53,100 bases of DNA from Candidatus Hydrogenedentota bacterium (GTDB taxonomy: Bacteria > Hydrogenedentota > Hydrogenedentia > Hydrogenedentales > JAEUWI01), in assembly GCA_030432675.1 (NCBI GenBank), contig JAUIMA010000001.1:1-53100 (forward strand), read 5' to 3'. How positions within the stretch are numbered: the first letter of the stretch is position 1; each line of letters opens with the position of its first letter. The notes under the pieces are model-generated. The model ran no database searches. It worked only from the letters and a program-made list of their open reading frames with translations, and was not told the origin of the DNA. Shown here piece after piece: positions 11,839-44,241 of this stretch. Both the position numbers and the translations under genes were made by a program.

Positions 11839-11913
11839 CACCGTCCTGCAGGACGGTGCGTTCGCGGTAATGTACGTTGTATAAATGCAGCGACACGCAT
11901 TCCGTGTCGCTGC
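11839..11913. repeat. two perfect palindromic stem-loops in the aceE-aceF spacer
   Basis: CACCGTCCTGCAGGACGGTG (11839-11858) and GCAGCGACACG-CATTC-CGTGTCGCTGC (11887-11913), inside a 209-nt intra-operon spacer. Confidence 0.6.
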
Positions 11914-11950
11914 GCTAGGATTCAATCAGGCCAGCGGCCCGGCAGGGCCA

Positions 11951-14620: not shown

Positions 14621-15016
14621 CAGGGACCTTCATCCTTTCCACTAAATCGGGCACGCATGGACATGCCGCGAAAGATATTGAATTGCAGATTCTGGAAACT
14701 CAATCTGTTCCATACCCGGCAGGCACCGAGTGACATGGTATTGTAAGCCACCCACCCCGCTTACATCAAGGTCAGACCCGTCGCGCTACGCTATCAATAG
14801 CGTTTTCAAGCCCTTAGACCACTTGATACCCCGCCCTTTTCGCCCCTCGCACCGTCCAAAAAGAGCCCTAGGATTAATCGAATTGCGCCCAAAGCGTAGC
14901 GATTGTACAGAATAGATTACCCGCTCATGGCACGATTCCTGCACCTTCAAGGCAGTTGAATGACTCGCGTTGAAACGCGGCATGAGTCCCCGCCCAACCG
15001 CAGAGGAGTGCCTGTC

Positions 15017-25018: not shown

Positions 25019-26416
25019 TTACCCGGGAATCTCCGTCCGCAGGTGCATGCTCTTCAAGCGCGTAAAGCCCAGCAGGCCATAGGTCGACAGGGTTGCGCCA
25101 CGGCCCGTGTCTTTCACGCCGCACCAGGGCAAGGCGGGGTCGAGGCAGTCGCAACGGTTCATGAAGAAGGTGCCCGTCTCAATCTGCTCGCCAATGCGAA
25201 TGGCCCGCTCGGTGTCGCTGGTCCAGATGGAGGCCGTCAGGCCATAGGGACTGTCGTTCATGTATTGAATGGCCTCTTCATCGCTGGAGACTTTGCAGAT
25301 GCCAATGACGGGCCCAAAGCTCTCTTCCTGCATGAGGGAACACTCCTGGGGCGCATCGGCCACCACGGCGGGTGCCAGGAAATAGCCCTTCGACGGCGTC
25401 GTGAATTCATCGGGCGAAACCACCAGGCGCGCACCGGCGGCCACGGCATCCTGCACCTGCTGCTTCAGGAAGGGAATGGCGCCCTTGGAGGCCAGGGGCC
25501 CGAGGCTTGTCTTTTCATCCGTGGGGTCACCCACTACGTATTCGCGGGCTTTGGCGGCATAGGCTTCCACGAACTTGTCGTAGATGGGCGCTTCCACGTA
25601 AATGCGCTCCACGGCACAGCAGGACTGACCCGCGTTGTAAAAGGCGCCGTCCACACAGTTGGCGACGGCCCAGTCGAAATCGGCATCGGCGCACACATAG
25701 GCCGGGTCTTTACCGCCGAGCTCCAGGCCCACTTCCACAAAGCGGTCGGCGGCACTGCGGTTGACCTGACGTCCACCAGACACAGACCCCGTAAAGGAAA
25801 CGTGGTCTACGCCGTTGTGTTTAATCAATAACTCGGTCACGCTGTGGTCTGCCGCGATGGCCTGCACGAGTCCCTCGGGCGCACCGGCGGCACGGAAGGC
25901 ATCTTCAAAGGCCGTGGCACAGAGGGGCGTCTTGCTGGAGTGCTTGACGATGACCGCGTTGCCCGCAAGCACAGCCGGTACCACGACATTCACGGCAATC
26001 ATAAGGGGGTAGTTCCACGCGGCAATATCGAGCACGACACCCAAGGGCTCGTGACGAATGTATCGGGTAAAGCCTTCCTTTTCCGGGAGCACATCATCGG
26101 CCAGGGTTTCGTCGGCAATGGCAATCATGTGATTGCCCCGCTCTAAGACCCCGCCGATCTCGCCTTTCGCCTGGCCCAGGGGCTTGCCCATCTGCGCCGT
26201 AACCGCAGCGGCTACCTCGTCGCCGTTGGCCTCAAACCAGGCCAGGGCCCGTTCGCACAGGGCCTTCCGTTCGCCCAGGGGCGAGGTGCGCCAGCCCACA
26301 TAGGCTTCGCGGGCACGGGAGACAACCCTATCGACCCCTTCGGCGGCGAGGCCTTCGACGGTGTAGACCACTTCTTCGGTGGCGGGACTGATAACTTCAA
26401 TGACAGTACTGGCCAT
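25019..26416 (-). CDS. NAD(P)-dependent aldehyde dehydrogenase family protein
   Basis: 465 aa. LELGGKDP, catalytic-Cys region NAGQSCCAVERIYV and EESFGPV. Confidence 0.92.
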   Translation of the reverse strand: MASTVIEVISPATEEVVYTVEGLAAEGVDRVVSRAREAYVGWRTSPLGERKALCERALAWFEANGDEVAAAVTAQMGKPLGQAKGEIGGVLERGNHMIAIADETLADDVLPEKEGFTRYIRHEPLGVVLDIAAWNYPLMIAVNVVVPAVLAGNAVIVKHSSKTPLCATAFEDAFRAAGAPEGLVQAIAADHSVTELLIKHNGVDHVSFTGSVSGGRQVNRSAADRFVEVGLELGGKDPAYVCADADFDWAVANCVDGAFYNAGQSCCAVERIYVEAPIYDKFVEAYAAKAREYVVGDPTDEKTSLGPLASKGAIPFLKQQVQDAVAAGARLVVSPDEFTTPSKGYFLAPAVVADAPQECSLMQEESFGPVIGICKVSSDEEAIQYMNDSPYGLTASIWTSDTERAIRIGEQIETGTFFMNRCDCLDPALPWCGVKDTGRGATLSTYGLLGFTRLKSMHLRTEIPG

Positions 26417-26690
26417 GATAAACCTCGTTTGCTTGGCAGGCGATCACCGGGGAAATTCGACGAAACAAAAAGGATGGAGCCGTGATCGCGGGCCACATCG
26501 CTATCCGCTCTGGGTGGAGGGAAGTGCGCAGAACGCGCGGGGTGCGGCACCCAGAAACCGTGGGCTAAGTATACGGCAGCGTCCAATTTCCGCGCAACAT
26601 GGCCCGTTTGCAAAGCTACTGGTGAAGCGTTACCATGGTGAAAGGGAATGCTGTTTTCACCGTGTACAATATCTGGAGAGAGGTATTATC

Positions 26691-28193
26691 GTGGCTGTTT
26701 TTTTAATGGGTACGGGTGCGCAGCACTCGCTTCAAAATGTCGTTGCACTCTTGGAAAAACAGCTACTAAGGACACAGGGTGTCCCCCGGCGCATCAACGC
26801 CTGGAGTGGCGATTTCCGACTGGAGGCAGAGCGGCCAGATTTTGATGCCCCTTTTTCGCGCTTTGCCGTGTACTTACCGAAGAGCTGGCCCGACGTTGGG
26901 GCACTGGAAGAAAAGACCCGGGGACTCGCGCCCTATGGTACCGTCTCGCACAATGAGGACAACGTCCAGTTTTCCTTCGTACCACCGGAAGGCGAAGGCC
27001 CTGAAAAAAGCCTGGAGGCCTTCGATTCCTTCGCGGCCGAACTGACCCTGCCCGAAGTGTGGCGGGCCGAGGGCGACAAATACCGCTTGGATCACATCAG
27101 CGCCGAACTGCTGTTCAAGGCCATCATTCAATATCGCGCCAGCGATGTGCACTTGTCCCCCGGGGTAAGTCCCGTATTTCGAATCGACGGCGAAACCCGC
27201 TCCTCTGATCTCCTCGGGCCCCTGTCGGCCGTTCAGATTGAGAGCCTGATTCGCGAGATGTCCCTCGACGAAGCGTGGAAAGAATTCGAAACCACCCGGC
27301 AAACCAGCTTTAACTACCATCAATCGGGGCTGGGCTATTCCCGGGTCTCGGCCTTCGTCAAATCCGGCGCACCCCATTGCACGATTCGCTTCTTGCCGGA
27401 GACCATCCCCAGTTTCGAAGAACTCCACGTGCCCAAGGACACCATGGTCAAGCTGGCGGAGCTCCACCGCGGACTGCTTCTGGTCACCGGCATGACAGGC
27501 AGCGGCAAGACCACCACCGTGGCCGCCCTCATCGATTGGATCAATTCGACCCGTTCCAGTCACATCCTCACTATCGAAAACCCCATCGAATTTGTGCACA
27601 CCAATAAGAAGTCTATCGTCTCCCAACGAAACCTCGGCATGGATGTGGACTCCTTCTATGACGCGGTGACGGGTGCGCTACGGCACGATCCGGATGTCAT
27701 TCTCATTGGTGAAATGCGGGACCCCGACACCATCCGCTCCGCCATCAACGCAGCGGCCACCGGCCACCTGGTGGTGAGCACGCTCCACGCCAACACGGCG
27801 GCCGAAGTGGTGAACCGAGTGCTCAGCTTCTTCGATCCCGTCGAGCGTGACTTGGTGAAACTTCAGCTGCGCGACTGTCTCCAGTGTGTCATCTGCCAGC
27901 GACTCGTGCCCAAACTCGGGGGCGGGCGCATCCCGGCTCTCGAAATGATGCTCAACGATGTAAAGGCCATCGCGGACGGCATTATGGAAGGCAGCACGGA
28001 CCATATCCGCATCGGCATGCAGCAGACCGTCTCCCACTCTTTCCTCTTCGAGCACTATCTCCACAACCTGTTAAAGCAGCAGAAAATCGATTTGGCCCAC
28101 GCCCAGGAGTTTGCCACCGATCAGAGTATGCTCGATCAGATTCGGATGGGTACCTATGCCGTACCCCGCCTGGAAGGGGTACGCGGCCACTAA
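26691..28193 (+). CDS. PilT/PilU-family hexameric ATPase with about 150-aa N-terminal extension
   Basis: ORF 26379-28193. The 5' part overlaps the ALDH start and is unlikely to be coding. GTG 26691 is preceded by GGAGAGAGG; the alternative is ATG 26706. Walker A GMTGSGKTTT, Asp box HILTIENPIEF, Walker B DPDVILIGEMRD, His box TGHLVVSTLHAN. The PilT N-domain begins near ELLFKAIIQYRASDVHL. Confidence 0.85.
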   Translation: MAVFLMGTGAQHSLQNVVALLEKQLLRTQGVPRRINAWSGDFRLEAERPDFDAPFSRFAVYLPKSWPDVGALEEKTRGLAPYGTVSHNEDNVQFSFVPPEGEGPEKSLEAFDSFAAELTLPEVWRAEGDKYRLDHISAELLFKAIIQYRASDVHLSPGVSPVFRIDGETRSSDLLGPLSAVQIESLIREMSLDEAWKEFETTRQTSFNYHQSGLGYSRVSAFVKSGAPHCTIRFLPETIPSFEELHVPKDTMVKLAELHRGLLLVTGMTGSGKTTTVAALIDWINSTRSSHILTIENPIEFVHTNKKSIVSQRNLGMDVDSFYDAVTGALRHDPDVILIGEMRDPDTIRSAINAAATGHLVVSTLHANTAAEVVNRVLSFFDPVERDLVKLQLRDCLQCVICQRLVPKLGGGRIPALEMMLNDVKAIADGIMEGSTDHIRIGMQQTVSHSFLFEHYLHNLLKQQKIDLAHAQEFATDQSMLDQIRMGTYAVPRLEGVRGH

Positions 28194-28273
28194 GAGCAAT
28201 GCGCCCACCTGGGCTCGAATAACACCGATGCCCTGCCACAAGTCCGTGCCAACGGGAAGGCAGTCATTGCACG

Positions 28274-29794
28274 TCAGCCGGCCGACGTCACCCCCGCATC
28301 GAGGGCGGGCACCCCGTCTTCTGTTTTGGCGGGCGCGGGCGGAGGCGTTGCCGCCTTCTTACGCGCCAGGTGCCGCAATCGGTGGATGATGATCGCCTCA
28401 TTGCGAATAGAGACGGTCAGCGCAATCATGAACCAATAGGGTTCCATGATTCGAACAATCAGGAAGGAGATGGTGCCGAAGGAGTGCACGATGAGCGCGG
28501 CCGTAGCACCAAACATCCCCAACGCGATTCCCCGCGCCATCCAATCTTCAGTCCAGCGATAGGCCTGCCGGGTGGTCCGCAGCACCTGAAACAACAGGAA
28601 CACGAAAGCCACCAGCCCCACCACACCGGTTTCAAGCAACACGCGGGCATATTGGCTGTCCAGCACCGACTCCCACGACACACCGCCTCCGAAGAAAAAG
28701 AACTGGGGCCCGAGACTAAGGATGAATCCGACCTTCCGCCACACGTGCACCCGCTCGTAGGTGGACTTATCCACATTCACGCCGAGATCACGCCCCGCCA
28801 CCACCAGCTCGCGCCCGCCATCTTCTTGTATCGTATAGGCCACCCGCTCGATAACGGCCGTCGGCATGATCAGCGTCGAGGAAGCCAACAGCAATGCGAT
28901 AACTGCCAGAATGAAGTACTTGCGGCTCATGAGAGCGATCACGGTAAAGCCCACCAAGAGAGCGACGTATGAAGCACGCGATAGGGTGTAGAGCAAGGGT
29001 ATGAAACCCGCGCTAACGAGTAAAAAATACATACACTTGATGCGTATTTTCTTCGCCTGCAACGCCAATCCCAAGGCGACGCACAGGCAAATGACCAGGT
29101 AACCCCCGAGGGTGTTGGGCTCGGTGCCCCCCTTTTCAAAGGGTGCACTCACCCGGGGCGTTGTGCCAATGCTGTAAATGCCATAACAGCTCACGATCAG
29201 CATGACGATAAAAAACAACCCAATCGGGGCCCGGAGGTCTTTCGATGCCCGCACCGAGTGGGCCACCATGAAGAAGATAAGATAAAACTCCAACATCTTC
29301 AACATGACAAAGAAAGCGGTCCGCTTATCCCACGCGGGCAAGCTGCGCTCATAGGCCAGCAACGTGGCGAAGACACACACGGCAAAATAGGCCACAATAC
29401 CGGAATTGATAGGACTCGGCTGCCAGAGCGCCAAGCGCCCTTCGAAGGTAAGTTTGATCATGACACCAATGAAGATGACGATAATCAACAAGTCATCGTA
29501 GCGGATGTTCAGACTTCGATCGCCGTTGGCCGCAGGCCGCAATTCGATCTCCGGCGACAGCAACATGGCAATCAGGAGGATAAATAGACCGAATTCGACC
29601 CGAACCACCGTGCCACCGAAGACCACCATGCTGATGGCCAACGCTGCCGTGAGGCTGTCATTGCCGAGCACCAGGTGCTGGGCAACCAGCATCACGCTGC
29701 TGACGAGCATGAACGCGGCAAAAATCGGGACTTCCAGTTGACTCTCGGCAACTTCACCACGACCGATTCCGCGTTCTGATCGGAAGAATGCCAT
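28274..29794 (-). CDS. Wzy / O-antigen-ligase-like polymerase (multi-pass membrane protein)
   Basis: 506 aa, about 11-12 TM segments. LLYTLSRASYVALLVG and DSQYARVLLETGVVGL resemble the Wzy_C / O-antigen ligase signature. Last gene of the envelope operon. Confidence 0.78.
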   Translation of the reverse strand: MAFFRSERGIGRGEVAESQLEVPIFAAFMLVSSVMLVAQHLVLGNDSLTAALAISMVVFGGTVVRVEFGLFILLIAMLLSPEIELRPAANGDRSLNIRYDDLLIIVIFIGVMIKLTFEGRLALWQPSPINSGIVAYFAVCVFATLLAYERSLPAWDKRTAFFVMLKMLEFYLIFFMVAHSVRASKDLRAPIGLFFIVMLIVSCYGIYSIGTTPRVSAPFEKGGTEPNTLGGYLVICLCVALGLALQAKKIRIKCMYFLLVSAGFIPLLYTLSRASYVALLVGFTVIALMSRKYFILAVIALLLASSTLIMPTAVIERVAYTIQEDGGRELVVAGRDLGVNVDKSTYERVHVWRKVGFILSLGPQFFFFGGGVSWESVLDSQYARVLLETGVVGLVAFVFLLFQVLRTTRQAYRWTEDWMARGIALGMFGATAALIVHSFGTISFLIVRIMEPYWFMIALTVSIRNEAIIIHRLRHLARKKAATPPPAPAKTEDGVPALDAGVTSAG

Positions 29795-29862
29795 GCCTGT
29801 CCCTTATCCTGTCCACACGGCGCGGCCACCGTGAAGGTGTCGGCCGGAAAACGCGCAATCGC

Positions 29863-32109
29863 TTAGAAGTGGTACCACTTGCGGCGCCCTGACGACCCGT
29901 CATCGTAGTAGTAGTAATAGTAGTAGTAGTGCCGACGGGTGGTTTCCAGTCCGTTTACCACCACACCCGCCACAGCCACCTTGGCCGTCGAGAGCAGCTT
30001 CTTCGCTCGAATGACCGTTTCGCGGCGCGCATTATTGGTTGATACGACCATCATGCAGGTGTCCACATGGGTCGCCAATAAGACCGGGTCTGTTACCACG
30101 AGCACCGAGGGCGCATCACAGATAACCAGATCAAAGGAAGCACCCAACTGGTCCATCAATTCCGCCATGTGGTCGGAACCAATCAACTCCGAAGGATTAG
30201 GGGGCACCCGTCCACTCGAAATAATCCAGAGGTTGTCTATCCGTGTCGGCCGAATGACGCTCTTCGAATCCAGTCCTTCGCGCAACACGTCGGCCAGACC
30301 CGGCCCACGCTCCATACGCAAGACGCGGTGCACATTGGGACGACGCAAGTCGGTGTCCACAATCAGGACCCGCATGCCGCGGTCGGCCATGGTAACCGCA
30401 AGATTTACCGCCGTCGTGGTCTTGCCTTCACCCGGCACGGCACTCGTCACCATCACCGTCTGGGGCTTGTCCTTAATGGTGGCAAACTGAAAGTTCGTCC
30501 GCAGGGTACGGTACGCTTCGGAGATGGGTGACTTGGGGTCGTGTTGGGTGACGATGCAGGAGTCGATTTGCTCCTCATCCACCGTGCTGACATAGGTCGC
30601 CCGCCGTCGTCGGCCACCCCGAGGCCGACCGAAGCGCATCCGCGGAATGGTACCGATCACTTCGAGGCCGATGTATTCGTTCACATCTTCGATGCTTCGA
30701 ATGGAAGTGTCGTTGTACTCGGTGACCATCGCAAAAACGAACATCACGATAAACCCGATGAGTCCGCCGATAGCAAAATTAACCCACTGCTGACGACTGC
30801 CGGGGACCCCCATAGGAACCGCCGATGCAATCGCGTCCTTCCGCTCCACGGAGCCCAGGCCCCGCTCGATATCCCGCCGAATCTCCATCTCCCGATCCGA
30901 GTACTGATTGAGCCGGGTCTCGATATTCTCCACTTCCCGCTTGAGCCGGTCCGAATCCACCTTGAGGTTGGCCAACTCGGGCACGCGGGGAATCAATTCC
31001 TCCCGCTCTTTCTTGATGGCTTGCTCACGCAACTCCAAGCCCGTCATCTGCAGGCGAATTTCAATCTGCTGACGATAAATCTCGTTGCGCTTCACCCAGA
31101 TATCACTGCCCCCGGGAACGCCCGAAGACTTTTGCTTCTCCGCCTCGAGGATAAGCGCCTGAGTCTCCGCGATGAGTTCTTCCAATTCAATCAGGCGCGG
31201 CCAGCTCGGTTGGTAAATCGCGCTAAGGGTCAGCTTCTCCTCCAGCAGTTTATCCAGATCCGCGAAAAGGCCGGTCACCAAATTGTCACTCGGCTGATTC
31301 AAGGACTCCGAAAACTGCTCGGAAGCCAATGCGAGTTCCGCATCCAGTTTATTCAATTTCTGCGTTGCGGCCACTTTGCTGACTTCGATTTCGCGCAGTT
31401 CCCGCTCTTTCTCGGCCAATCGCTGATCGATGTCTTCATAGTCCTGAAAACCATGGGCCTGCATGAATTCCAGCCGCGCCTGTTCCGCTTCGGCCAAATC
31501 GTCGCGAAGAGACTGAATGATTCCAACGGCATCTTCATGGCTATGTTGGGCCAACTCCAGATGGCGGTGGCGATTTACCTCCAAAAAGGCACGGGTGGCA
31601 AACTCAGCAATCGCATTCGCTTCTTCGGCCGTTTCGCAACGCTCCACATTGATATCGATGTACTGGTCGCCCTGGGCCGAAATCGAAATCTTACTCTGAA
31701 CCGAGGCGGCCAGCGAACGAAACTCCGCGGGAGAGACCACGTTACTGGTTCGACCGCCCGAAGCCACATCCGTCTGAATCATGGCGCGGGCCACCTCTTC
31801 CGCAAGCGTATTCAGACTCGTGCGTTCCACAAGACTTCCCGCCGTCATCACATAGGGAGAAGGGGGAGAATTGGTCATGATCCGGCTGGAGCGGCCATCG
31901 GCGACCACCAATTTACCGGAGGTCCGATACATCGTCTCGGCCGTTTCCTGGGTATACCACGCCACCCCACCAAAGGCCAGGGCACCAAACAATGTACCCA
32001 ACAGGAGGAGGAGCCAGCGATCAGAAAACACGTTCCAGACGTAGCGGAACTGGTTGTCCTGATTTTCCCGTGTGGTGTCTTCCAATACAGGCGCGTCTAT
32101 ACTCGACAT
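29863..32109 (-). CDS. polysaccharide co-polymerase / bacterial tyrosine autokinase (Wzc/GumC-like)
   Basis: 748 aa. Two TM segments flank a long coiled-coil region. Walker A SAVPGEGKTTTAVNLA, Walker A' LIVDTDLRRP, Walker B DLVICDAPSV. C-terminal tyrosine cluster HYYYYYYYYDD. Confidence 0.9.
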   Translation of the reverse strand: MSSIDAPVLEDTTRENQDNQFRYVWNVFSDRWLLLLLGTLFGALAFGGVAWYTQETAETMYRTSGKLVVADGRSSRIMTNSPPSPYVMTAGSLVERTSLNTLAEEVARAMIQTDVASGGRTSNVVSPAEFRSLAASVQSKISISAQGDQYIDINVERCETAEEANAIAEFATRAFLEVNRHRHLELAQHSHEDAVGIIQSLRDDLAEAEQARLEFMQAHGFQDYEDIDQRLAEKERELREIEVSKVAATQKLNKLDAELALASEQFSESLNQPSDNLVTGLFADLDKLLEEKLTLSAIYQPSWPRLIELEELIAETQALILEAEKQKSSGVPGGSDIWVKRNEIYRQQIEIRLQMTGLELREQAIKKEREELIPRVPELANLKVDSDRLKREVENIETRLNQYSDREMEIRRDIERGLGSVERKDAIASAVPMGVPGSRQQWVNFAIGGLIGFIVMFVFAMVTEYNDTSIRSIEDVNEYIGLEVIGTIPRMRFGRPRGGRRRRATYVSTVDEEQIDSCIVTQHDPKSPISEAYRTLRTNFQFATIKDKPQTVMVTSAVPGEGKTTTAVNLAVTMADRGMRVLIVDTDLRRPNVHRVLRMERGPGLADVLREGLDSKSVIRPTRIDNLWIISSGRVPPNPSELIGSDHMAELMDQLGASFDLVICDAPSVLVVTDPVLLATHVDTCMMVVSTNNARRETVIRAKKLLSTAKVAVAGVVVNGLETTRRHYYYYYYYYDDGSSGRRKWYHF

Positions 32110-32112
32110 AGC

Positions 32113-33591
32113 CTAGTCCTTCCGCACTTCCGCTCGGGCTTCAAGGGCCGCCAGAAAGGGATCCGTATGACCGAAGCCATCCATATCCAGACTGCGCTCC
32201 CAACGAATGTCTTCCGGCCGATCGTGAATGGTGGGTGTCACAAATATCATCAGCTCGCGGCTGGTGCGTGTGCGCTCTTTGTGTTTAAAGAGATTTCCGA
32301 AAATTGGAAGGTTGCCCAAGCCCGGAAGCTTCTGGATTACCGTATGATTGTCGGCCATCACAATGCCACCAATCACGAGTGACTGACCATCTCGTACAAT
32401 GCGTTGGCTGTTACTGCTACGCAGGGCGCGAACGGGCACCCCGTTGGAAACACCTACCGCCGTGGACACCTCGGGGGCCAGCTCGACCAGGACATACCGT
32501 CCGCCATCCGGGTCACGACGCACGTGGGGCACCACTTCCAGGACGATACCAATCTCCAGGAATTGCACATTCTCGACGGACGAGAAGCCCGCCGTGCCGA
32601 CTTCGGAATAGGGAAATTCTTCGGTCATACGAATCGTCGCCGGCTTGTGGTTTACGGTACCCACATAGGGGGATGCCAACAGTTCGGCCTTGTCATCGGC
32701 CACCAGGGCATCAAGCATTACGCCCAGATCAATGCCACTGTTCATATAACCCATAAACATCTGGCCGGGAGCCGCCACCTGAACCGGCACCTGGAGACGG
32801 CGATCAAAATCCCCTTCATCAAGGAAACGGCGACTCAATCCACCGCCCCGATTCCCCGTGTCGAGTGACTCATTAAACTCGGGGCCTACCGACTGGCGGA
32901 TCGAAGTCAACACCGCATCCTGCCGCGGCGGAGGCGTATAGCCACCACCCGCATGATCGCCCTGAACAAACCAGCGGATGCCGAGTTCCTTGGCCGCAGC
33001 GGTTTCCACTTCGACGATCTTGGACTCGATTAACACCTGCGTAATCTGGGACTCCATCTGGTCCAATTCGTGAATAACAGAAATCATGTTCTGCAGGATC
33101 CCCGATTCGTCCGTCAGAATCAGGCTGTTGGTATTGGGGTCGAAACTTACACTGCCACCTGCCGACGACATTCCGTTCAGGGCTTTCTCCAGGCCACCGG
33201 CATCCGCGTTGTTCAACGGGATAACCTTGGTCTGCATGGATTGGGTACGCATGACACCACCGGGAAGGGCCATGGCGCCCTCGATGCTACGAGAAACGGT
33301 CACCCGCGGATTCTTCAAAATGCTCTTGAATCCCATGGAAACCCGCGCACCCGCGTCGTTCAGACTCAGCCCCTTCAGCGTCACGTTGCCAATATAGGGC
33401 AATTCCACATTGCCCTTGCTGTCCAGCTGGGTCGTCGTCGACAATTCCGGCTGACGATGGACGTTGATGTACACCAAGTCCCCGGGAGTCAGGAAATCCT
33501 CTTTCATCGTTTCCGCTGCGGCGGGTATGATACCGAGGCACAGGCTGACGATAGAAAGAACGAGGGTGAACCGCGTTGACAGGCTTAACAT
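32113..33591 (-). CDS. outer-membrane secretin with N-terminal Wza-type Poly_export domain
   Basis: 492 aa. Signal peptide. GDLVYINVHRQPELSTTTQLDSKGNVELPYIGNVTLKGLSLNDA...NPRVTV is Poly_export-like. KVIPLNNADAGGLEKALNGM...SFDPNTNSLILTDESGILQNMISVIHELD is Secretin_N-like. The C-terminus GGIVMADNHTVIQKLPGLGNLPIFGNLFKHKERTRTSRELMIFVTPTI is the secretin signature. Confidence 0.85.
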   Translation of the reverse strand: MLSLSTRFTLVLSIVSLCLGIIPAAAETMKEDFLTPGDLVYINVHRQPELSTTTQLDSKGNVELPYIGNVTLKGLSLNDAGARVSMGFKSILKNPRVTVSRSIEGAMALPGGVMRTQSMQTKVIPLNNADAGGLEKALNGMSSAGGSVSFDPNTNSLILTDESGILQNMISVIHELDQMESQITQVLIESKIVEVETAAAKELGIRWFVQGDHAGGGYTPPPRQDAVLTSIRQSVGPEFNESLDTGNRGGGLSRRFLDEGDFDRRLQVPVQVAAPGQMFMGYMNSGIDLGVMLDALVADDKAELLASPYVGTVNHKPATIRMTEEFPYSEVGTAGFSSVENVQFLEIGIVLEVVPHVRRDPDGGRYVLVELAPEVSTAVGVSNGVPVRALRSSNSQRIVRDGQSLVIGGIVMADNHTVIQKLPGLGNLPIFGNLFKHKERTRTSRELMIFVTPTIHDRPEDIRWERSLDMDGFGHTDPFLAALEARAEVRKD

Positions 33592-33652
33592 GAGTTTTCA
33601 CTCCACAGGGTTATTTGATTCCGGGTCGCCTTAATGGGGAGCCGGTTATAGA

Positions 33653-35683
33653 CTACTGGGCTGGTGCTGCCTCGGTCGCTTCCGCGTTTCCTTCGGAAGC
33701 CTCCGCAGGTTCCGGTGTCGTCATGACGGCCGGATACTCATCAGCCGCATTCTCTTCACGACTTTCAACACCGGGCTCTGACATCATTTCGCCCGACATT
33801 GTTTCCGGCGTTGCTTCGGGAGCGGCTACCGGCGTATCCGGGACATTTTCCACATCCGAGGGCATCACAGGATTTGCCTCATCCGTACCGGCATCCGATT
33901 CTTCGTAGCTCAGCCATTCCAGATTTTTTTGCAACTCTGCCTTCATGCTCGGCTCGATGCCAGGCACCTGGATAGCACGCTGCCAATAGGTTGCTGCGGT
34001 TTCCATGAAGGCATCCCGATTCGCATCGGAAGTAGCCAAATCGGCGCGGATTTTATACAGCTCGCCGAGACTTCGAAAATCTTCATCCACGGTATAATTT
34101 CCCGGGAGAAAAGCAGCCTGAAGATACGCACTCTCTGCCGCTTCATACTCGGACTTCTGACTGTAAGCCCGGGCCAGGTAGCGCAGCATGGTCAACGCCG
34201 CCTGGGGGTCATTGGCGGGATCGGCCTGGTCCCGGAGCATATCAATGGCCTTATCATAGTCGCCCAGCTCGTAATAGAGCCGACCCATGATCGTTTCCGC
34301 CCGGGTCCGTTTGCGATGCAACGGGTTTTCCTGAATGAACGTAGCAAACCGCTCTACTGCGGCGGTGTAACGACGCCGCATTTCGTCTCGCGAGCGGATA
34401 TCGCCCAGGGTCAGGGCGTAGGCCGCGCGAAACTGGGCATCGGCCGCCGCTACGGGGTCCGCACCCACCTTATGGGCCAGGCTGTCATAGGCCCGAGACG
34501 CTTCCGGGTATTTGCCCTCTTTCATCAGGCGGCTGGCTTTTACTTCGAGATCTTCCGCCCGCTGTAGCACGGGGGCCACGACGTAAACGTATCCGGCCAC
34601 TACCCCCCCAATCAGGACAACCAATAACACGATCATGCGAACCACTTTGCCCGCCCGGCGTCCGCCACGGGTATGGCGTTTCGAACGACGGCGGGCTGGC
34701 GCCGCACTGTAGTCGTAAGACAAATCGGCGTCCATATCGACCGATGTGGGGCTGGTCGCACTGTAGGTTGGCAATAAACTCGGGGCAGGTGCTGCCGGGG
34801 TGGTCGGCGCAGTGGCCTCTTGCGGAGGACGCTTTCCAAGGGTCTGCATCAACTGCTCCGCTTCCGCGAGCGCTTCCCGTGAAGGCACTTTGGGCGATGC
34901 TTCGGGTGGCGCTGGTGTCGACGCGGGCTCCTCCGCTGGGGCCTCCTCGATAGCATTAACGCCTTCCGCGACGGAGTCCAACAAGGAATCCCAATCATCC
35001 GTCAGTGACCCATCCGCCTCAGGAACGGGCTCGGCAGGCCCATCGGGGGTCGATGGCGTGGCAGGGTCACCTGTCGGCTCCTCTGGCTGTGCACTGACTT
35101 CTTCAATCTGCTCCAACAGCGCCAACAAATCGGCTGACGGTGAAGACTCCTCCTCCGGTTCCGCAGGCACTTCTGCCGGTGAGGCCAATGGGGTCGTCGT
35201 CCGCACATCGTCGGGCGGCTCCGGGAATCCCGATTCCAGGCCCGCGACGATGTCCTTGAAGGCATCAACGGAGGAGCTCGGGGCGGGCGCACTCCCGCGC
35301 AGGGTATCGCTTCCGCGGTCGGGCACAAGATTACTATCCAGCGAGACATCCGAAAGCCCACCCGCGCCGCCATCATTTCCGTCGTCCACGTCAGACACGC
35401 CCTTTTCATAAAAACTCAGGGGTGCAGCGGGGTTGAGATCATCGTCACTCACGGAATCTTCGGGCTCGGAAACGGCCGGTGCCCCGTCCCGAATGGGAGC
35501 CCGTGTAAGGCCCGACATTTGAATGAAATCCAGGGAATTAGCGCGCTGCCCATCGGGCACCCCACTGCCAAAGCGGTCGTCATCGGGCATGCCCGCCAGC
35601 AAGTCACCGTCGATCGCATCGGCCGTAAAGGGATCGCTCCCTTCGCCGGAAAAGTCTTGCTCCTGTTCGGCACCTGACGCCAT
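33653..35683 (-). CDS. TPR-repeat bitopic membrane protein with acidic/Pro-rich disordered regions (MshN/PrsT-like role?)
   Basis: ORF 33653-35773. ATG 35683 lies 1 nt after the ATPase stop; the alternative ATG 35704 overlaps it. The N-terminal ~340 aa are D/E/P/A/S-rich. TM segment VVRMIVLLVVLIGGVVAGYVYVV. TPR-like helices follow (KYPEASRAYDSLA, GDYDKAIDMLR, SEYEAAESAYLQAA). Acidic tail. Confidence 0.75.
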   Translation of the reverse strand: MASGAEQEQDFSGEGSDPFTADAIDGDLLAGMPDDDRFGSGVPDGQRANSLDFIQMSGLTRAPIRDGAPAVSEPEDSVSDDDLNPAAPLSFYEKGVSDVDDGNDGGAGGLSDVSLDSNLVPDRGSDTLRGSAPAPSSSVDAFKDIVAGLESGFPEPPDDVRTTTPLASPAEVPAEPEEESSPSADLLALLEQIEEVSAQPEEPTGDPATPSTPDGPAEPVPEADGSLTDDWDSLLDSVAEGVNAIEEAPAEEPASTPAPPEASPKVPSREALAEAEQLMQTLGKRPPQEATAPTTPAAPAPSLLPTYSATSPTSVDMDADLSYDYSAAPARRRSKRHTRGGRRAGKVVRMIVLLVVLIGGVVAGYVYVVAPVLQRAEDLEVKASRLMKEGKYPEASRAYDSLAHKVGADPVAAADAQFRAAYALTLGDIRSRDEMRRRYTAAVERFATFIQENPLHRKRTRAETIMGRLYYELGDYDKAIDMLRDQADPANDPQAALTMLRYLARAYSQKSEYEAAESAYLQAAFLPGNYTVDEDFRSLGELYKIRADLATSDANRDAFMETAATYWQRAIQVPGIEPSMKAELQKNLEWLSYEESDAGTDEANPVMPSDVENVPDTPVAAPEATPETMSGEMMSEPGVESREENAADEYPAVMTTPEPAEASEGNAEATEAAPAQ

Positions 35684-35684
35684 A

Positions 35685-36704
35685 TCAGCCCAATCCCTGA
35701 TCATGTCTGGCCCGCGCGGATCGCAACAGCAAATCGGCCGCGCGCTGATCGCGCGACTGCTGATCCCGCACATTTCGCTCCCGAATACCGCCTGGGGCCA
35801 CCGGCGTTACGGGGGCGGGTGGCCGGGCAGATGCCCCGATAGCTGCCGCAACGCGGGCACGCTTTTCGGGATCGGGTAACGTGGTCTTCTCTATCGTATG
35901 TAACACTATATCGTGCGTTATGCGCCTGGTCTTTAGCTGGGCCGCCAATAGAAGGGCATTTCGACACAGGGTTACCATGACACGAGGACTTCCTTCGGCG
36001 TAGGCGTGGATGGCCCGCAGGGCGCCCTCTTCAAACTCGGGGCCCGTGCCCGGCTGGGCTCCCGCCTGCTGTAAGCGAAAGGCAATAAACTGCTGGGCCT
36101 CATCAAAATCGATGGGTTCCAGCGTATAGGTCAGGTTGATCCGTTGCTCAAAATTGGGTGCGGCCTGTAAGACCTGCATCCATTCCAGCTGCGCAAAGAA
36201 CACCAGGTTCAGTAATTTGTGTTGCTGGGTTTCCAGATTCTGCACCAGCCGGAGCAACTCCAGTTGACCGCGCTTATTCAGATTCTGCGCATCGTCAATG
36301 ATGAGTGTGCAAATCCGATCCCGATTTTCCAGGAGATGCTGGTTCAACGCCTCCATATAGGCCACGAACGATTGCTCCGCAGGGCGCAGACCAAATTGAG
36401 CCACGATACTCTCCAGCAGGGCAAAACTGGTCCAGGAGGGTATGGGCGATCCGATCACCGCCGTAAGATAGCGATCCGGATCGGCCGCCATCCCCGTCAT
36501 CAGCTTACGCAGGAGGGTCGTCTTGCCCGTACCATAATTCCCGAGCACGACTGCGATCCCGTGAGAAGCATCGATACCATTCCACAGACGGTAGAGGCAC
36601 TCTTTGTGGCCCCGGGTGGCGTAAAAATACACCGGGTCTGCTGTGGGAGCAAAAGGCTGCTCCGCGAGACCCAACTGACGTAAATAGGTTTGCGTTCCAT
36701 CCAT
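35685..36704 (-). CDS. ExeA/GspA/MshM-like AAA+ ATPase (no peptidoglycan-binding tail)
   Basis: ORF 35685-36869. Family-typical start at ATG 36704 (MDGTQTYLRQLGLAEQPFAPTADPVYFY). Walker A LGNYGTGKTTL. Walker B LIIDDAQNL. Confidence 0.85.
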   Translation of the reverse strand: MDGTQTYLRQLGLAEQPFAPTADPVYFYATRGHKECLYRLWNGIDASHGIAVVLGNYGTGKTTLLRKLMTGMAADPDRYLTAVIGSPIPSWTSFALLESIVAQFGLRPAEQSFVAYMEALNQHLLENRDRICTLIIDDAQNLNKRGQLELLRLVQNLETQQHKLLNLVFFAQLEWMQVLQAAPNFEQRINLTYTLEPIDFDEAQQFIAFRLQQAGAQPGTGPEFEEGALRAIHAYAEGSPRVMVTLCRNALLLAAQLKTRRITHDIVLHTIEKTTLPDPEKRARVAAAIGASARPPAPVTPVAPGGIRERNVRDQQSRDQRAADLLLRSARARHDQGLG

Positions 36705-37178
36705 GCGCGTATGCCTGTTCCAATCGGTGTAGATTTGCCAAGCCCTCTGCACGCGGTATAGGACACACCGCCGTTCAGAGCGCCCCCAATACAGAGGGGA
36801 CCACAACATAGGGGGCATCCCTGCACCCTGAATCGCGATCTTGGCTACTGTGGGTAGACCTGCCGCCACTGCGCACCGCGACGAAACGGTTTCGTCACGA
36901 AATCCGACCCACTCCGGGGCCTGTAAATCACACCAACGCAGCAGCTAAGCAATTGATTTCAACCGATCTAGCCACTCCTAATAATACTCCTGCAAAACAG
37001 GACTGTCAACCGATTACCGGTGCGGCCCAAATTTTTGGTCGGCCACCGGAAACCCCGTAAGCTGCGGAAAGAACGAATTTCGAGACCCTATGGACGATGG
37101 GACGCAGATAATGACCCCGTGCCCTTGCTATACTGCGGCCTCAATTTGCCCCCGAAAACAGCCTCACAGGAGTTAACG

Positions 37179-40874
<3,696 letters not shown>

Positions 40875-42603: not shown

Positions 42604-44241
42604 CTACTGCACCATGGCCTTGATCGACTCAATGCGTTTCAGGTTGTCACGCACATCTTGCAACACAGCCTTCTCTTCTTCAAAGGCCAGTCGGGGGGCC
42701 AGAAAAGCCGCTTTCAAATCCTGCAAGCTTCCTTGACGGGCCATCCACGCCACAGACCGTATTGCGAATGAAAGTATGACCAACTCCACCGTTGTGATAA
42801 TGGCAAGTACCGTCGCCGAATGGATGAGAAACGACACGTCGAGAAATCGTGCCGCCAGGTAGGACTTCACGACGATAAAGGCGGTATAGCACAAGAAGGC
42901 CACGGGCGGCACATCGAGCAATACGGTCGTCAGCCACCGACTCAAACGCCGGGCACCGTTTTGAACCCGCTCCCGGGCGGGCCCCTTGATCACCGAGACC
43001 AGCCGCCGGTCCAATTCCTGCTGAAAGGCCAACTCTCCCGCCCCCTCGCGCACCTCAATACCGGCGCGAACAAAGGTCAGGGCCAGCTCGCTCTGCTGGG
43101 TGCGGTAATATTCCAAGACCCGCTCGGGTGCGATGGTCTCCTCATGGGGCATCAAATCATCGCTGGTCAGTAGCTCCGCCGCGCGACGTCCATCGCTGTT
43201 CTTCAGTCCCGCCAACGACAGAAAGCTCGGCATCCGCATGGGCAGACTGCGGAGCGCATCCAAGACGCGATAACAAATCCCTATATACCCTTTGGAGCGC
43301 ACGCTCGTCTCACGACCCACGGCATAGGTCCAGAGATGGGGTTCGGCGAAAAGGTGGTCACTCACAAAGCCCAGGCTTTCCCGGGCGAGTGCCTTGTCCG
43401 ACGCTTGAATTCCCTTTTCCAGGTCGGCGAGGGCGGGCCTGATTTCCTCCGCAATCTCATCGAGGCGCTGTGTCGCCTTCTGGAGGAGTCCCGCCACGTT
43501 GGACCGCTTGATCCGGGCAATACGCTCGCGGTTCAACTCCTGCCGCAAGAACTGGTCCAGCGCCGGCCCATCGTATTCCTCTTCCTCGGGCTTGCCACCG
43601 GCCATCTTGCGATCCAGCGTGCGCAGGGCGTTTACCCGAAAGTAAGGCCCCGTCTCAAAGCCCTGATCCTTCAGCCGCTCCAGCCAGTGCTCTTTAACCG
43701 AAGGCTGGGGACCCGCTTTGGTCTCCACGCAAATCATGGCGCGCTGCCCACGAAGGGGACGCAACAAGGACCACGAGGCTTCGTCCAGATACTTCTCCGT
43801 GCTCGCGCACAATACGATTAAATCGCATTGCTTTAAGACCTCTACGGTGCGCTCCCGGTGGATATGAGCGATGCTGTCCGAGTCGGGCGTATCAATGAGC
43901 ACAAGGTGTTCCAGCGCCGACCGGGGCACCCCCTCCCATTCATGGAAGGGCAATTCTGTTCCGGGCGGGTGATAGGCCATGGGCTTGGTGGTACAGGGGC
44001 GCATGGCCGACGTCAGGGCAATCTGGTCGCCTGCAATGGCATTGAGCAGGGTCGACTTTCCCACACCAGAGCCGCCCACCAGGGCCACCACCAGAACATC
44101 GTCCAGGCGGGCCTCGCGGGTCTGTAACTCGTTGACCCGCTCCCGAAGACGGGCCGTCTCCTGACGGAGGGCTTTCCAGGGGCCGTCATAGTCGGCCAGG
44201 GCTTCCAGGTGCTCGAGGACGTTTAAGATACTGTCAGACAC
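42604..44241 (-). CDS. membrane-anchored P-loop GTPase (dynamin-like?), partner B
   Basis: 545 aa. G1 GGSGVGKST, G3 LIDTPD, degenerate G4 ETKAG. Long helical middle. Two C-proximal TM segments (TTVLLDVPPVAFLCYTAFIVV and FLIHSATVLAIITTVELVILSFAI). Its start overlaps the upstream gene by 19 nt. Confidence 0.78.
   Translation of the reverse strand: MSDSILNVLEHLEALADYDGPWKALRQETARLRERVNELQTREARLDDVLVVALVGGSGVGKSTLLNAIAGDQIALTSAMRPCTTKPMAYHPPGTELPFHEWEGVPRSALEHLVLIDTPDSDSIAHIHRERTVEVLKQCDLIVLCASTEKYLDEASWSLLRPLRGQRAMICVETKAGPQPSVKEHWLERLKDQGFETGPYFRVNALRTLDRKMAGGKPEEEEYDGPALDQFLRQELNRERIARIKRSNVAGLLQKATQRLDEIAEEIRPALADLEKGIQASDKALARESLGFVSDHLFAEPHLWTYAVGRETSVRSKGYIGICYRVLDALRSLPMRMPSFLSLAGLKNSDGRRAAELLTSDDLMPHEETIAPERVLEYYRTQQSELALTFVRAGIEVREGAGELAFQQELDRRLVSVIKGPARERVQNGARRLSRWLTTVLLDVPPVAFLCYTAFIVVKSYLAARFLDVSFLIHSATVLAIITTVELVILSFAIRSVAWMARQGSLQDLKAAFLAPRLAFEEEKAVLQDVRDNLKRIESIKAMVQ

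Follow-up and report, generated by a model that had tools for sequence, protein, structure and literature searches.

The closest described systems are the OPX proteins and the co-polymerases (PCPs) on which they dock. In the Wza-Wzc system of the E. coli group 1 capsule and colanic acid (PDB 2J58, 9r60-9r69), Wza is composed of an N-terminal Poly_export/PES domain (D1), the SLBB rings D2/D3 and an amphipathic Wza_C helix, which forms the α-helical barrel spanning the outer membrane. Wza without D1 loses its co-localisation with Wzc, and salt bridges from D99 and E102 to Wzc are essential (PMC12881504). PslD from the Psl system of P. aeruginosa (PDB 9v6l/9v75) is a minimal OPX protein. It is a lipoprotein of 256 aa that forms octamers, has a D3 domain and places one β-strand per protomer in the membrane. 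Its D1/PES domain binds motif 3 of PslE, and its parallel β-barrel in place of an α-barrel shows that OPX proteins can exchange, in evolution, the module that spans the outer membrane. The PCP-contact residues are not conserved between the known systems, the constrictions of Wza and PslD measure 9.6-13 Å and the solved OPX entries are 8-mers (PMC13434223; PDB). The class-3 OPX proteins WzaX/S/B of M. xanthus (PDB 9n9a; bioRxiv 10.1101/2022.02.11.480155) lack an outer membrane-spanning helix and recruit Wzp, a separate, monomeric, PgaA-like porin of 18 strands. The published outer membrane routes, including that for OPX proteins without a membrane-spanning helix, are thus the Wza α-barrel, the PslD parallel β-barrel and the separate Wzp porin.

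Secretins are homo-oligomeric (12-16-mer) gated channels of the outer membrane whose usual cargoes are proteins and pili. They are normally coupled to an inner-membrane platform (GspC, PilP, PrgH) by their N0 domain; in PilQ and GspD, N0/STN (and AMIN) domains couple to PilP and GspC. Their accessory systems include GspA/GspB (ExeAB), MshM/MshN, which belongs to MshL, and the TPR pilotins PilF, PilW, Tgl and TadD. The word secretin has also been used loosely for Wza in several papers. From the slime nozzles of cyanobacteria and M. xanthus it was argued that secretins can export non-protein polymers; secretins were implicated in slime and polysaccharide secretion, but direct and indirect roles could not be told apart (PMC12475490).

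The window analysed here, a stretch of 53,100 nt from a member of the Hydrogenedentota, contains a gene in which an OPX domain and a secretin are joined. It is an ATG-initiated open reading frame on the minus strand (32113..33591) encoding 492 aa plus stop. The original prediction gave no strand; all peptides quoted in it were found in the minus-strand translation, and a plus-strand reading of 32113-33591 was rejected because it is interrupted by stops. A Poly_export domain at about residues 30-105, Secretin_N and a secretin domain had been proposed, and Pfam hmmscan placed all three in one polypeptide above their gathering scores (GA). Poly_export (PF02563) matched residues 32-100 (33292..33498) with E 5.7e-15 and 55.7 bits (GA 28), Secretin_N (PF03958) residues 121-182 (33046..33231) with E 2.7e-13 and 50.3 bits (GA 28.2), and Secretin (PF00263) residues 295-455 with E 8.7e-34 and 117 bits (GA 27.5), the last match covering model positions 1-167 of 169. 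These scores far exceed chance. The complete β-barrel/gate domain comprises residues 183-455 (32227..33045). A signal peptide (residues 1-26; 33514..33591) lies within a hydrophobic segment of residues 1-29 and has a probable SPI site between AAA and E. Residues 101-118 (33238..33291) form a linker that is variable in a 50-sequence alignment, is modelled with low confidence and leads directly from D1 into Secretin_N. The C-terminal tail (residues 456-492; 32116..32226) contains a helix at 477-486 in the model. All these parts are encoded on the minus strand.

Two of the terms originally applied to the protein have to be narrowed. It is Wza-type in its D1/PES domain; SLBB (D2/D3) gave no Pfam match at E <= 0.01, and Wza_C and Caps_synth_GfcC were likewise without a Pfam match, the C-terminal module being a secretin. 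Secretin_N is present as a single ring-building domain, equivalent to N3 of GspD, and not as a canonical repeat. In BLASTP, E. coli GspD 260-608 aligned to residues 113-473 with 28% identity, and GspD 260-330 is the part that aligned to Secretin_N. Neither STN nor type_II_gspD_N0 was matched in Pfam, and Poly_export sits at the N0 position. As a whole the protein stayed below the NCBIfam cutoffs for GspD (TIGR02517, 184.5 vs 351.35), PilQ (TIGR02515, 178.7 vs 284.35) and MshL (TIGR02519, 84 vs 250.2). We also considered that it might be a lipoprotein like Wza and PslD. This was rejected, since the N-termini of 50 homologues show no conserved lipobox; the window protein has none and a lipobox-like string occurs in 7 of the 50. 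The C-termini of the family share a 'PE..W.R' sequence and an E-x-R-[KR]-[DE] motif at the extreme end, so that, judged from sequence, the tail is possibly a partner-binding site resembling an S-domain. No second Poly_export or secretin open reading frame was found elsewhere in the window.

Structure prediction gave the same picture. In the AlphaFold (AF2) monomer model D1 has a pLDDT of about 90 and Secretin_N of 87-93; values are below 50 in the linker (103-111) and low in the gate region. With Foldseek the body of the model matched GspD, PilQ and InvG at E ~1e-19, and D1 superimposed on WzaB (9n9a) with an rmsd of 0.8 Å over 71 columns and on Wza (2J58) with 1.4 Å over 85 columns. A phmmer search of the PDB with the entire protein found PilQ and GspD at E 1e-31. 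A family profile of the N-domain found OPX proteins only, namely WzaB (9n9a, E 1.2e-10), Wza (~1e-6) and PslD. Pfam, the PDB profile and Foldseek thus bear out that the N-terminal region is a Poly_export domain with the fold of Wza D1/WzaB and not an N0/N1 domain on its secretin-like body.

Like Wza, the fusion protein possesses the GPGD...PEL motif of the D1 fold. The stretch V43-x-R45-x-P-E48-L-S50 aligns to W-D99-H-P-E102-L of Wza, and R45, which is present in 50 of 50 sequences, occupies the position of the Wza contact residue D99. Because PCP-contact residues differ between the known systems, the conserved PEL loop does not specifically indicate docking. The remainder of the protein departs from the described OPX systems. 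Whereas Wza has SLBB rings and crosses the outer membrane with an α-helical barrel of 8 subunits, the fusion has neither SLBB rings nor Wza_C, nor a conserved lipobox, and would cross it with a gated secretin β-barrel of an expected 12-15. Unlike PslD it carries an N3-type ring and an entire secretin domain, some 270 residues long. Class-3 OPX proteins provide, with WzaB, the best structural and sequence match to its D1; both lack an outer membrane-spanning helix and both recruit a β-barrel, which in M. xanthus is a separate monomeric porin and in the fusion is a covalently joined, gated and presumably oligomeric secretin. The published classification (bioRxiv 10.1101/2022.02.11.480155) defines OPX proteins by at least one SLBB (β-grasp) domain behind D1; having none, the fusion belongs to none of its three classes. 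Compared with PilQ and GspD, it shares the Secretin_N and Secretin domains and its nearest relatives are of the PilQ type, but it has one N-domain only, OPX D1 instead of N0/STN (and AMIN), and no T2SS or T4P genes in its operon. In the nearest secretins that are not fused, the place of D1 is taken by STN/N0 or AMIN.

The fusion gene lies in a cassette of five genes on the minus strand. The first encodes an AAA_22 P-loop ATPase (35685..36869; AAA_22 E 7.6e-18) without a transmembrane segment. The listed open reading frame begins at GTG; homologues align from about residue 44-60 of the query, and the true start is likely M56 (36704), for a protein of about 339 aa. Its best NCBIfam match was the XrtA/PEP-CTERM-associated ATPase TIGR03015 (E 1.9e-45, 155.4 bits vs cutoff 324.5). 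An assignment as GspA/ExeA orthologue was rejected; similarity to E. coli GspA was weak and confined to the P-loop region (E 4e-4), and for this reason we refer to the protein as AAA_22, TIGR03015-like. The second gene (33653..35773) encodes a bitopic TPR protein with an acidic cytoplasmic N-region, one transmembrane segment at about 373-404, a periplasmic TPR domain at about 404-640 (TPR Pfam matches at 466-554) and an acidic tail. It likely starts at M31 (35683), abutting the ATPase stop.

Downstream of the fusion follows a PCP-2a tyrosine autokinase of the Wzc type (29863..32109; 748 aa). The predicted Wzc neighbour is bona fide: TIGR01007 scored 178.9 bits (cutoff 108) and PRK11519 gave E 3.9e-48, and the protein has a Walker ATPase, two transmembrane helices (~31-52 and ~441-465) with a periplasmic domain of some 390 aa between them, and a C-terminal YYYYYYYY (Y8) cluster. 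The position of the fusion gene next to such a kinase is a further likeness to Wza. A conserved Gly-rich loop is our guess for the apex of its helical arms, with 328-341 as the candidate loop. The spacing of 3 nt between the two genes also held, the stop of the fusion (32113-32115) being followed by GCT and the ATG of Wzc (32109). The last gene (28274..29794; 506 aa) encodes a polytopic Wzy-like or O-antigen-ligase-like membrane protein with about 10 hydrophobic segments. Its Wzy_C match was weak (E 4e-4, below GA), and it is 29% identical (E 1e-43) to the protein at the same position of a distant locus, L084, for which a Pfam Wzy_C match is recorded.

The gaps of 3, 61 and 68 nt, the overlapping ATPase and TPR reading frames and one promoter-like site upstream are the signals of an operon. 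This site (36981..37009, minus strand; TTGACA-17-TATTAT, 11/12) lies upstream of the cassette, between divergently oriented genes, and is the sole such site in 27900-37200 (mean of 4.4 in shuffles); the match is to a σ70 consensus only, promoters of the host phylum being uncharacterised. Long antisense reading frames over the cassette (e.g. 30541-32382 on the plus strand) were treated as GC-rich shadows, though they recur in related loci. As regards the Wzx/Wzy pathway, the PCP-2a is clear, the Wzy-like protein weakly matched and Wzx absent from the window cassette. Since no flippase, glycosyltransferase or initiating transferase is found in the window cassette or conserved in the Hydrogenedentota loci, the link of the cassette to a particular glycan is indirect.

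As in the accessory systems of other secretins, the gene is immediately preceded by those for an AAA_22-family ATPase and a TPR protein. GspA-type proteins differ from the cassette ATPase, which has no transmembrane segment and no peptidoglycan-binding domain, and TPR pilotins are outer membrane lipoproteins whereas the TPR protein here is a bitopic inner-membrane protein. Homology of the pair to GspA/GspB, MshM/MshN or pilotins is not established.

The fusion was found in at least 43 species-representative genomes of Hydrogenedentota, and the same three Pfam domains were present in all of the best 120 homologues. The order ATPase, TPR protein, fusion, Wzc, Wzy-like protein is retained in Hydrogenedentota loci down to 41% identity. 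Among the 43 loci, Wzc lies directly downstream of the fusion in 42, the TPR gene directly upstream in 39 and a Wzy-like gene is present in 36; the ATPase gene was seen in 33, the loci without it being cut off by contig ends. None of the 43 has another Poly_export reading frame within ±8 kb, as judged with a D1 profile able to detect Wza in the PDB. Two distant clades (31-35% identity), whose gene context was taken from cluster members and metagenome contigs, have the fusion between a TPR protein with a transmembrane segment and a Wzz/GNVR PCP plus BY-kinase. One of these loci, L082, carries an ABC/Wzt transporter; the other, the Auribacterota-like L084, carries Wzy_C, glycosyltransferases, a deacetylase, Exosortase_EpsH and EpsI. 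In both the upstream protein has a basic-TM-TPR structure analogous to that of the window TPR protein, and in L084 it matched the PilW and Tgl models weakly. Scans of species genomes with the distant-clade fusions P0135 and P0138 found no fusion-bearing relatives. The phylogenetic distribution thus covers Hydrogenedentota and two distant clades, and adjacency of fusion and PCP extends over three divergent clades from at least two phyla.

Cryo-EM structures of 2026 identify D1/PES as the co-polymerase-docking module, and we therefore read the fusion as a secretin in which N0 has been swapped for D1. Taken with the polysaccharide operon in which it lies, this combination looks like an undescribed outer membrane route for sugar polymers. 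We put the probability at roughly 0.6 that the protein is the outer membrane component of a machine for polysaccharide polymerisation and export, built from a PilQ/GspD-type secretin with D1/PES in place of N0. That a Wzc-docking domain has been grafted onto a secretin, as the original prediction already suggested, agrees with the 2026 structures and with the PCP adjacency in three clades, and a contact between D1 and Wzc would follow from it. In such a machine, lipid-linked repeat units would be polymerised by the Wzy-like protein, either at the Wzc oligomer or within it. Wzc would extend its periplasmic helical arms to the D1 domains and bind them; these domains would hang below the secretin on flexible linkers of about 18 residues. 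The growing glycan would cross the N3-like ring, push through the secretin gate and exit via the β-barrel, the secretin supplying the outer membrane-spanning part in cis. The AAA_22 ATPase and the bitopic TPR protein may be accessory factors for assembly of the secretin or for scaffolding. Several points speak against this reading. OPX/PCP complexes of known structure are 8:8, secretins of known structure contain 12-15 identical chains, the secretin lumen is far wider than one glycan chain needs, and the fusion lacks the SLBB domains with which the OPX channel is thought to be lined. The indirect link to a glycan, the weak Wzy match, the distant likeness of the ATPase to GspA and the unspecific PEL loop also count against it. 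That the secretin is a dedicated polysaccharide exporter standing on Wzc by way of the grafted D1, and one which may carry exosortase-processed proteins as well, we consider an even chance.

The large pore would be accounted for if the secretin carried PEP-CTERM-type proteins or protein-glycan conjugates together with exopolysaccharide, D1 tying it to the PCP and the polysaccharide pathway. For the ATPase, the PCP/kinase and D1 of the cassette, the NCBIfam models that match best or nearly best belong to the XrtA/PEP-CTERM set, the best for D1 being EpsE and pepcterm_export; in L084 the fusion clusters with Exosortase_EpsH and EpsI, and the best match of its PCP is the XrtA chain-length determinant TIGR03007 (219 bits, below the curated cutoff). 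How PEP-CTERM proteins pass the outer membrane is unknown (PMC1569441), and proteins tagged with MYXO-CTERM or GlyGly-CTERM cross it by the T2SS (PMC11980579). Every XrtA-family match is, however, below its curated cutoff, including TIGR03027 (OPX) on the fusion (28.1 vs 180) and the PCP and kinase models TIGR03007/03018 (53.1 vs 278.9; 157.8 vs 230.7). The canonical XrtA system uses a small Wza-like OPX protein and not a secretin. Among fusion loci exosortase genes occur only in L084; neither exosortase nor EpsI is present among the scanned window ORFs or the families conserved across the 43 loci. A regex scan of window ORFs and 45 loci gave no convincing PEP-CTERM-like C-termini, and the cassette has no T2SS-like pseudopilus or platform genes. 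We therefore regard combined export of this kind as rather unlikely.

With a secretin core closest to PilQ and GspD, the protein might instead be an ordinary T4P/T2SS-like pilus or protein secretin, its Poly_export-like domain just standing in for a periplasmic ring domain or for one close to the peptidoglycan, and the presence of Wzc nearby being incidental. A gene for a PilT-family ATPase is present in the window and in 12 of the 43 related loci, but it is on the opposite strand, convergent to the cassette, and absent from most loci. The cassette contains no pilin, PilMNOP or GspC-M genes, and the conserved neighbours are the ATPase, TPR, Wzc and Wzy-like genes, not those of T2SS, T4P, T3SS or phage assembly. 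Of the OPX domains only D1 is known to bind PCPs, and adjacency to a PCP gene at 31-35% identity in at least two phyla is not incidental; this explanation is distinctly improbable.

Given the symmetry mismatch, it is difficult to envisage one continuous, sealed conduit. The mismatch would be less troublesome if the secretin part did not conduct and only anchored a periplasmic D1 ring in the outer membrane, the polymer leaving by a porin encoded elsewhere as in class-3 OPX plus Wzp. Most OPX proteins have no outer membrane-spanning segment of their own and use a separate β-barrel (bioRxiv 10.1101/2022.02.11.480155). No candidate porin is conserved in the 43 loci, however, and the full Pfam secretin model is matched, with many invariant residues in the barrel and gate region. 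To keep a gated channel of about 370 residues solely as an anchor would be unparsimonious, and we judge this very improbable. That the fusion is an artefact of mis-assembly, frameshift or the joining of two adjacent genes in gene calling is scarcely credible and is refuted by its conservation, as one uninterrupted ORF here and the same single ORF in over 120 protein clusters, which stem from independent assemblies at NCBI, JGI, ENA and Logan, with the same architecture in 43 species-representative genomes and two further clades.

Literature searches found no published description or characterisation of a Poly_export-secretin fusion, so the architecture is conserved but, as far as these searches show, not already characterised, and the OPX classification of 2022 (bioRxiv 10.1101/2022.02.11.480155) has no class with a secretin. 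The covalently attached secretin would add one more outer membrane solution for OPX proteins, the fourth, to those published. If the reading as a dedicated polysaccharide exporter docked on Wzc is true, OPX proteins would gain a fourth structural class with the fusion, which would also be the first secretin permanently wired into a glycan pathway. The coupling of an 8-fold co-polymerase to a 12-15-fold secretin would be a structural puzzle; this mismatch must be solved by the machine, or its PCP is non-octameric. The inner-membrane-coupling domain of secretins is, as the fusion shows, a swappable module. For the question whether secretins can export polysaccharide, a genome that wires a secretin to a Wzc/Wzy machine offers a clean test system, and the fusion in an exosortase locus hints at an outer membrane route for PEP-CTERM proteins. 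Hydrogenedentota and an Auribacterota-like lineage, both of them uncultured phyla, possess a compact, conserved, putative export module of 4-5 genes, which could be reconstituted heterologously.

The OPX-secretin fusion is encoded by a single open reading frame of 492 codons with one ATG start at window positions 32113-33591 on the minus strand; the plus-strand reading was rejected, as it is full of stops. Three Pfam domains were found, all scoring well beyond their gathering thresholds (GA): Poly_export (PF02563, residues 32-100, E = 5.7e-15, 55.7 bits, GA 28), Secretin_N (PF03958, residues 121-182, E = 2.7e-13, 50.3 bits, GA 28.2) and Secretin (PF00263, residues 295-455, E = 8.7e-34, 117 bits, GA 27.5, nearly the entire model). 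The original prediction that these three are joined in one polypeptide was thus correct, and all peptides it quoted are present in the minus-strand translation. Its description of the N-terminus as Wza-type needs refinement: D1, the N-terminal OPX domain, is present but no other Wza domain is, and the strand is minus. Nowhere in the protein was there a Pfam match to SLBB, Wza_C, STN/N0 or AMIN. Residues 1-29 are hydrophobic with an AAA|E site and resemble an ordinary signal peptide; a comparison of homologue N-termini revealed no conserved lipobox. Directly after the secretin domain, residues 456-492 (32116-32226, minus strand) carry the family-conserved motif PE..(T/R)W(D/E)R, and the extreme C-terminus keeps E-x-R-[KR]-[DE] even where the intervening 20 residues vary. 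These residues could serve the TPR protein described below, or another partner, as an S-domain-like docking peptide.

As had been proposed, the N-terminal domain is an OPX D1 and not a secretin N0/N1 domain, on which Pfam, Foldseek and a profile search of the PDB agreed. The profile retrieved OPX proteins only (WzaB 1.2e-10, Wza ~1e-6, PslD 0.016). In an AlphaFold2 monomer model built from an alignment of 50 homologues (mean pLDDT 72), confidence was ~90 at residues 31-100 and 87-93 in the Secretin_N domain, the two being joined by a disordered linker (residues 101-118). Foldseek superimposed the N-domain on the class-3 OPX protein WzaB of Myxococcus xanthus (9n9a) with an rmsd of 0.8 Å over 71 columns and on Escherichia coli Wza (2J58) with 1.4 Å over 85 columns, while the body of the protein matched the secretins GspD, PilQ, InvG, RcpA and pIV (E 1e-13 to 1e-20). 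These profile and fold matches therefore argue against reassigning the domain to an ordinary secretin N0. The N3 and secretin domains of E. coli GspD align to residues 113-473 (28% identity, E = 1e-27). Because the alignment starts at N3, the single Secretin_N domain is the N3 equivalent and N0-N2 of GspD are replaced. The nearest non-fusion secretins in a library of 1.84 billion proteins have STN/N0, sometimes plus AMIN, at the position of D1.

The fusion gene is the third of a same-strand cassette (all minus strand). It is preceded by genes for an AAA_22 ATPase (35685-36869), which lacks transmembrane (TM) segments and whose best NCBIfam match, the XrtA/PEP-CTERM-associated ATPase TIGR03015, is below cutoff, and for a bitopic TPR protein (33653-35773) with an acidic cytoplasmic region, one TM segment and a periplasmic TPR domain. 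A Wzc-type PCP-2a tyrosine autokinase (29863-32109) and a polytopic Wzy-like protein (28274-29794; weak Wzy_C, E = 4e-4) follow. The ATPase and TPR ORFs overlap, the later gaps are 61, 3 and 68 nt, and the region's only strong sigma-70-like match is located just ahead of the first gene. The autokinase gene predicted 3 nt downstream is indeed there, its ATG exactly three bases past the fusion stop. The 748-aa product scored above the TIGR01007 cutoff (178.9 bits, cutoff 108), matched E. coli Wzc models (E ~1e-48), has two TM helices flanking a periplasmic domain of ~390 residues, and ends in HYYYYYYYYDD. The cassette contains no flippase or glycosyltransferase gene. The ATPase is marginally similar to E. 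coli GspA. As judged only from gene position and analogy to secretin accessory factors, it and the TPR protein may help to assemble or pilot the secretin, or may form a periplasmic scaffold.

Elsewhere in the window, a 1152-aa Ser/Thr protein kinase is joined to two WD40 beta-propellers (5385-8843, plus strand). Two dynamin-like/MMR_HSR1 GTPases of 545 and 590 aa are encoded by overlapping tandem genes (42604-44241 and 44223-45995, minus strand), the usual layout of bacterial dynamin-like proteins. ORFs of 524 aa (8873-10447) and 953 aa (11885-14746), both on the plus strand, had no Pfam or NCBIfam match; the coding strand of the latter is uncertain, as an 889-aa ORF (11951-14620) runs antisense to it. 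Real genes are also overlapped on the opposite strand by very long "shadow" ORFs of up to 755 aa (30541-32382 and 33070-33579, plus strand; 37329-39596, minus strand; and others). Several seemed "conserved" across related loci on ORF clustering, so that gene calling in this genome of 59% GC is easily misled.

All of the best 120 matches to the fusion in a collection of 5.8 billion proteins carry the same three domains. The named ones come from Candidatus Hydrogenedentes/Hydrogenedentota MAGs and are labelled "polysaccharide biosynthesis/export family protein" or GspD/PilQ/HofQ. When one genome per GTDB species was searched, 43 loci had a full-length fusion (41-96% identity, the 96% being that of MAG JAXMOL01 to the window), all in Hydrogenedentota or in doubtfully labelled bins with the same cassette. 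Below these, identity fell sharply to ~30%, with secretin-only matches from other phyla that lacked D1. The doubtful bins are species representatives titled Nitrospirales/Nitrospiraceae (L011, L013, L015, L026, L028, L029, L031, L040, L041) or Bathyarchaeia (L034), many of them "binchicken" co-assemblies; they hold complete Hydrogenedentota-type cassettes at 45-54% identity, and probably either the labels are wrong or the contigs are contaminants. In a 50%-clustered library only ~18 representatives aligned full-length, among them P0135 (35% identity) and P0138 (31%), distant fusions in which all three domains are again present; these counts cover the matches listed, and thousands of weaker ones could include more divergent fusions. 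One contig that bears a P0138-cluster member includes a lepA gene, whose product shares 83% identity with the LepA of a Candidatus Auribacterota MAG and no more than 62% with the LepA proteins of Verrucomicrobiota-labelled MAGs. At least two phyla, assigned by NCBI to separate superphyla (FCB and PVC), therefore have the fusion. When the secretin core was placed in a crude neighbour-joining tree, all fusions fell into one clade that took in just two PilQ-type proteins, a pattern that, as a rough indication, fits a single origin or few origins.

According to tblastn and ORF clustering, the cassette order was kept in essentially all 43 loci wherever the contig was long enough. Besides the cassette only two flanking genes were conserved. 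One, divergent and directly upstream of the ATPase gene in 19 loci (e.g. locus L003, 2693-4450, minus strand), encodes an FHA-GAF-HD-GYP (HD_5) protein, possibly a regulator (c-di-GMP or phospho-threonine) of the export operon. The window lacks it and has a hydantoinase/oxoprolinase gene in that slot. This divergent 1284-aa ORF (37020-40874, plus strand), shared with the two closest relatives (L001 and L002) only, has Hydantoinase_A and Hydantoinase_B (oxoprolinase/caprolactamase-like alpha and beta subunits) fused in one chain. The other flanking gene, in 12 loci including the window, encodes a PilT/PilU-family ATPase (26379-28193, plus strand; TIGR01420 344 bits, cutoff 319) convergent on the Wzy-like gene. 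Its N-terminal extension of ~137 aa has no family match, and the true start is probably near 26700. A profile that detects PDB Wza found no second Poly_export ORF within 8 kb on either side in any related locus.

The core layout is retained in the loci of the two distant clades. In L082 the order is histidine kinase, response regulator, TM-TPR protein, 182-aa protein, fusion, Wzz/GNVR PCP (polysaccharide co-polymerase) and separate BY-kinase, followed by radical-SAM genes, an ABC2/Wzt transporter and glycosyltransferases. In the Auribacterota-like L084 it is histidine kinase, two response regulators, TM-TPR protein, fusion, PCP (TIGR03007-like, 219 bits) and BY-kinase, followed by a Wzy_C protein, glycosyltransferases, a formyltransferase, a deacetylase, Exosortase_EpsH and EpsI. 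Between the window and L084, the Wzy-like proteins show homology (E = 1e-43), and the TPR proteins have a common layout of basic stretch, TM segment and TPR (E = 1e-7). In both distant loci the TM-TPR protein has an N-terminal HATPase_c_4 domain (L082, 7547-9418; L084, 8403-10070), whereas the Hydrogenedentota cassettes encode the AAA_22 ATPase in a gene of its own, ahead of a TPR protein with an acidic N-region; this suggests differing cytoplasmic input modules on one periplasmic partner. The triad of TPR protein, OPX-secretin and PCP is kept in three clades, which makes a strong guilt-by-association case that the fusion works with a polysaccharide co-polymerase.

The N0 domain of secretins binds an inner-membrane platform (GspD-GspC, PilQ-PilP, InvG-PrgH). 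The simplest reading is a module swap in which this platform-coupling domain was exchanged for the PCP-coupling domain of OPX proteins, so that a Wzc/Wzy machine would feed a secretin pore. E. coli Wza without D1 loses co-localisation with Wzc; by cryo-EM the forearm of the Wzc helical arm meets D1 via D99-K332 and E102-H338, and mutating the interface abolishes capsule production (PMC12881504). The D1/PES domain of Pseudomonas aeruginosa PslD engages motif 3 of PslE, whose octamer it stabilises (PMC13434223). Membrane-spanning parts also vary among OPX proteins: that of Wza consists of helices and that of PslD is a parallel beta-barrel (PMC13434223), while class-3 proteins have none and use a separate porin (bioRxiv 10.1101/2022.02.11.480155). 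The Wza loop W-D99-H-P-E102-L aligns to H-R45-Q-P-E48-L of the fusion, where R45 is invariant (50/50) and position 48 is Glu or Asp in 49/50. This is compatible with D1-Wzc docking but is no proof, because the PEL motif is family-wide and PCP-contact residues vary among systems (PMC13434223). On the Wzc side, a conserved Gly-rich loop between heptad-like segments of the periplasmic domain (residues 328-341, S-S-G-V-P-G-G334-S-D-I-W338-V-K-R341, ~31087-31128, minus strand; G334 31/31, W338 26/31, R341 29/31) is a candidate for the helical-arm apex that would meet D1.

Stoichiometry does not fit this reading. Solved OPX and PCP assemblies are octamers and solved secretins in the PDB contain 12-15 identical chains per entry. 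With D1 on every secretin protomer via a flexible linker of ~18 residues, either a subset of the D1 copies alone would engage an octameric Wzc, or the stoichiometry of this system is another. The secretin lumen is also far wider than a glycan chain requires, and the large pore would be accounted for if exosortase-processed proteins or protein-glycan conjugates were co-exported. An exosortase is present in L084, several proteins of the cassette are similar to families of the XrtA system, the T2SS is required by other proteins that are sorted via their C-termini (PMC11980579), and no outer-membrane route is known for PEP-CTERM proteins (PMC1569441). However, the window and the Hydrogenedentota loci yielded neither an exosortase nor PEP-CTERM-like proteins, and we consider co-export rather unlikely. 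That the fusion is a pilus or protein secretin in an incidental polysaccharide neighbourhood is very improbable; its neighbour in all three clades is a PCP. It is about as improbable that the secretin part, which matches nearly the whole Pfam model, is a non-conducting anchor, and an artefact, given the recurrence of the architecture, can be practically dismissed.

The protein has the barrel and N3-type domain of the secretin superfamily and is a member, but it lacks N0 and a secretin gene context and scores below every curated equivalog cutoff. It shares with OPX proteins the PES/D1 domain, the single sequence feature common to them all, and PCP adjacency, but it has neither SLBB nor any known OPX C-terminal module and therefore falls outside the three published OPX classes (bioRxiv 10.1101/2022.02.11.480155). 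In the literature we found no description of a Poly_export-secretin fusion. Judged entirely from sequence, predicted structure and synteny in uncultured organisms, the protein recombines two export modules already known from the outer membrane and is conserved over two candidate phyla. PilQ/GspD secretins have been claimed as slime nozzles of cyanobacteria and M. xanthus, with direct polymer conduction left open (PMC12475490). The fusion provides independent genomic evidence for the dedication of at least one secretin lineage to a glycan pathway; it would surprise OPX and secretin specialists alike and is directly testable.
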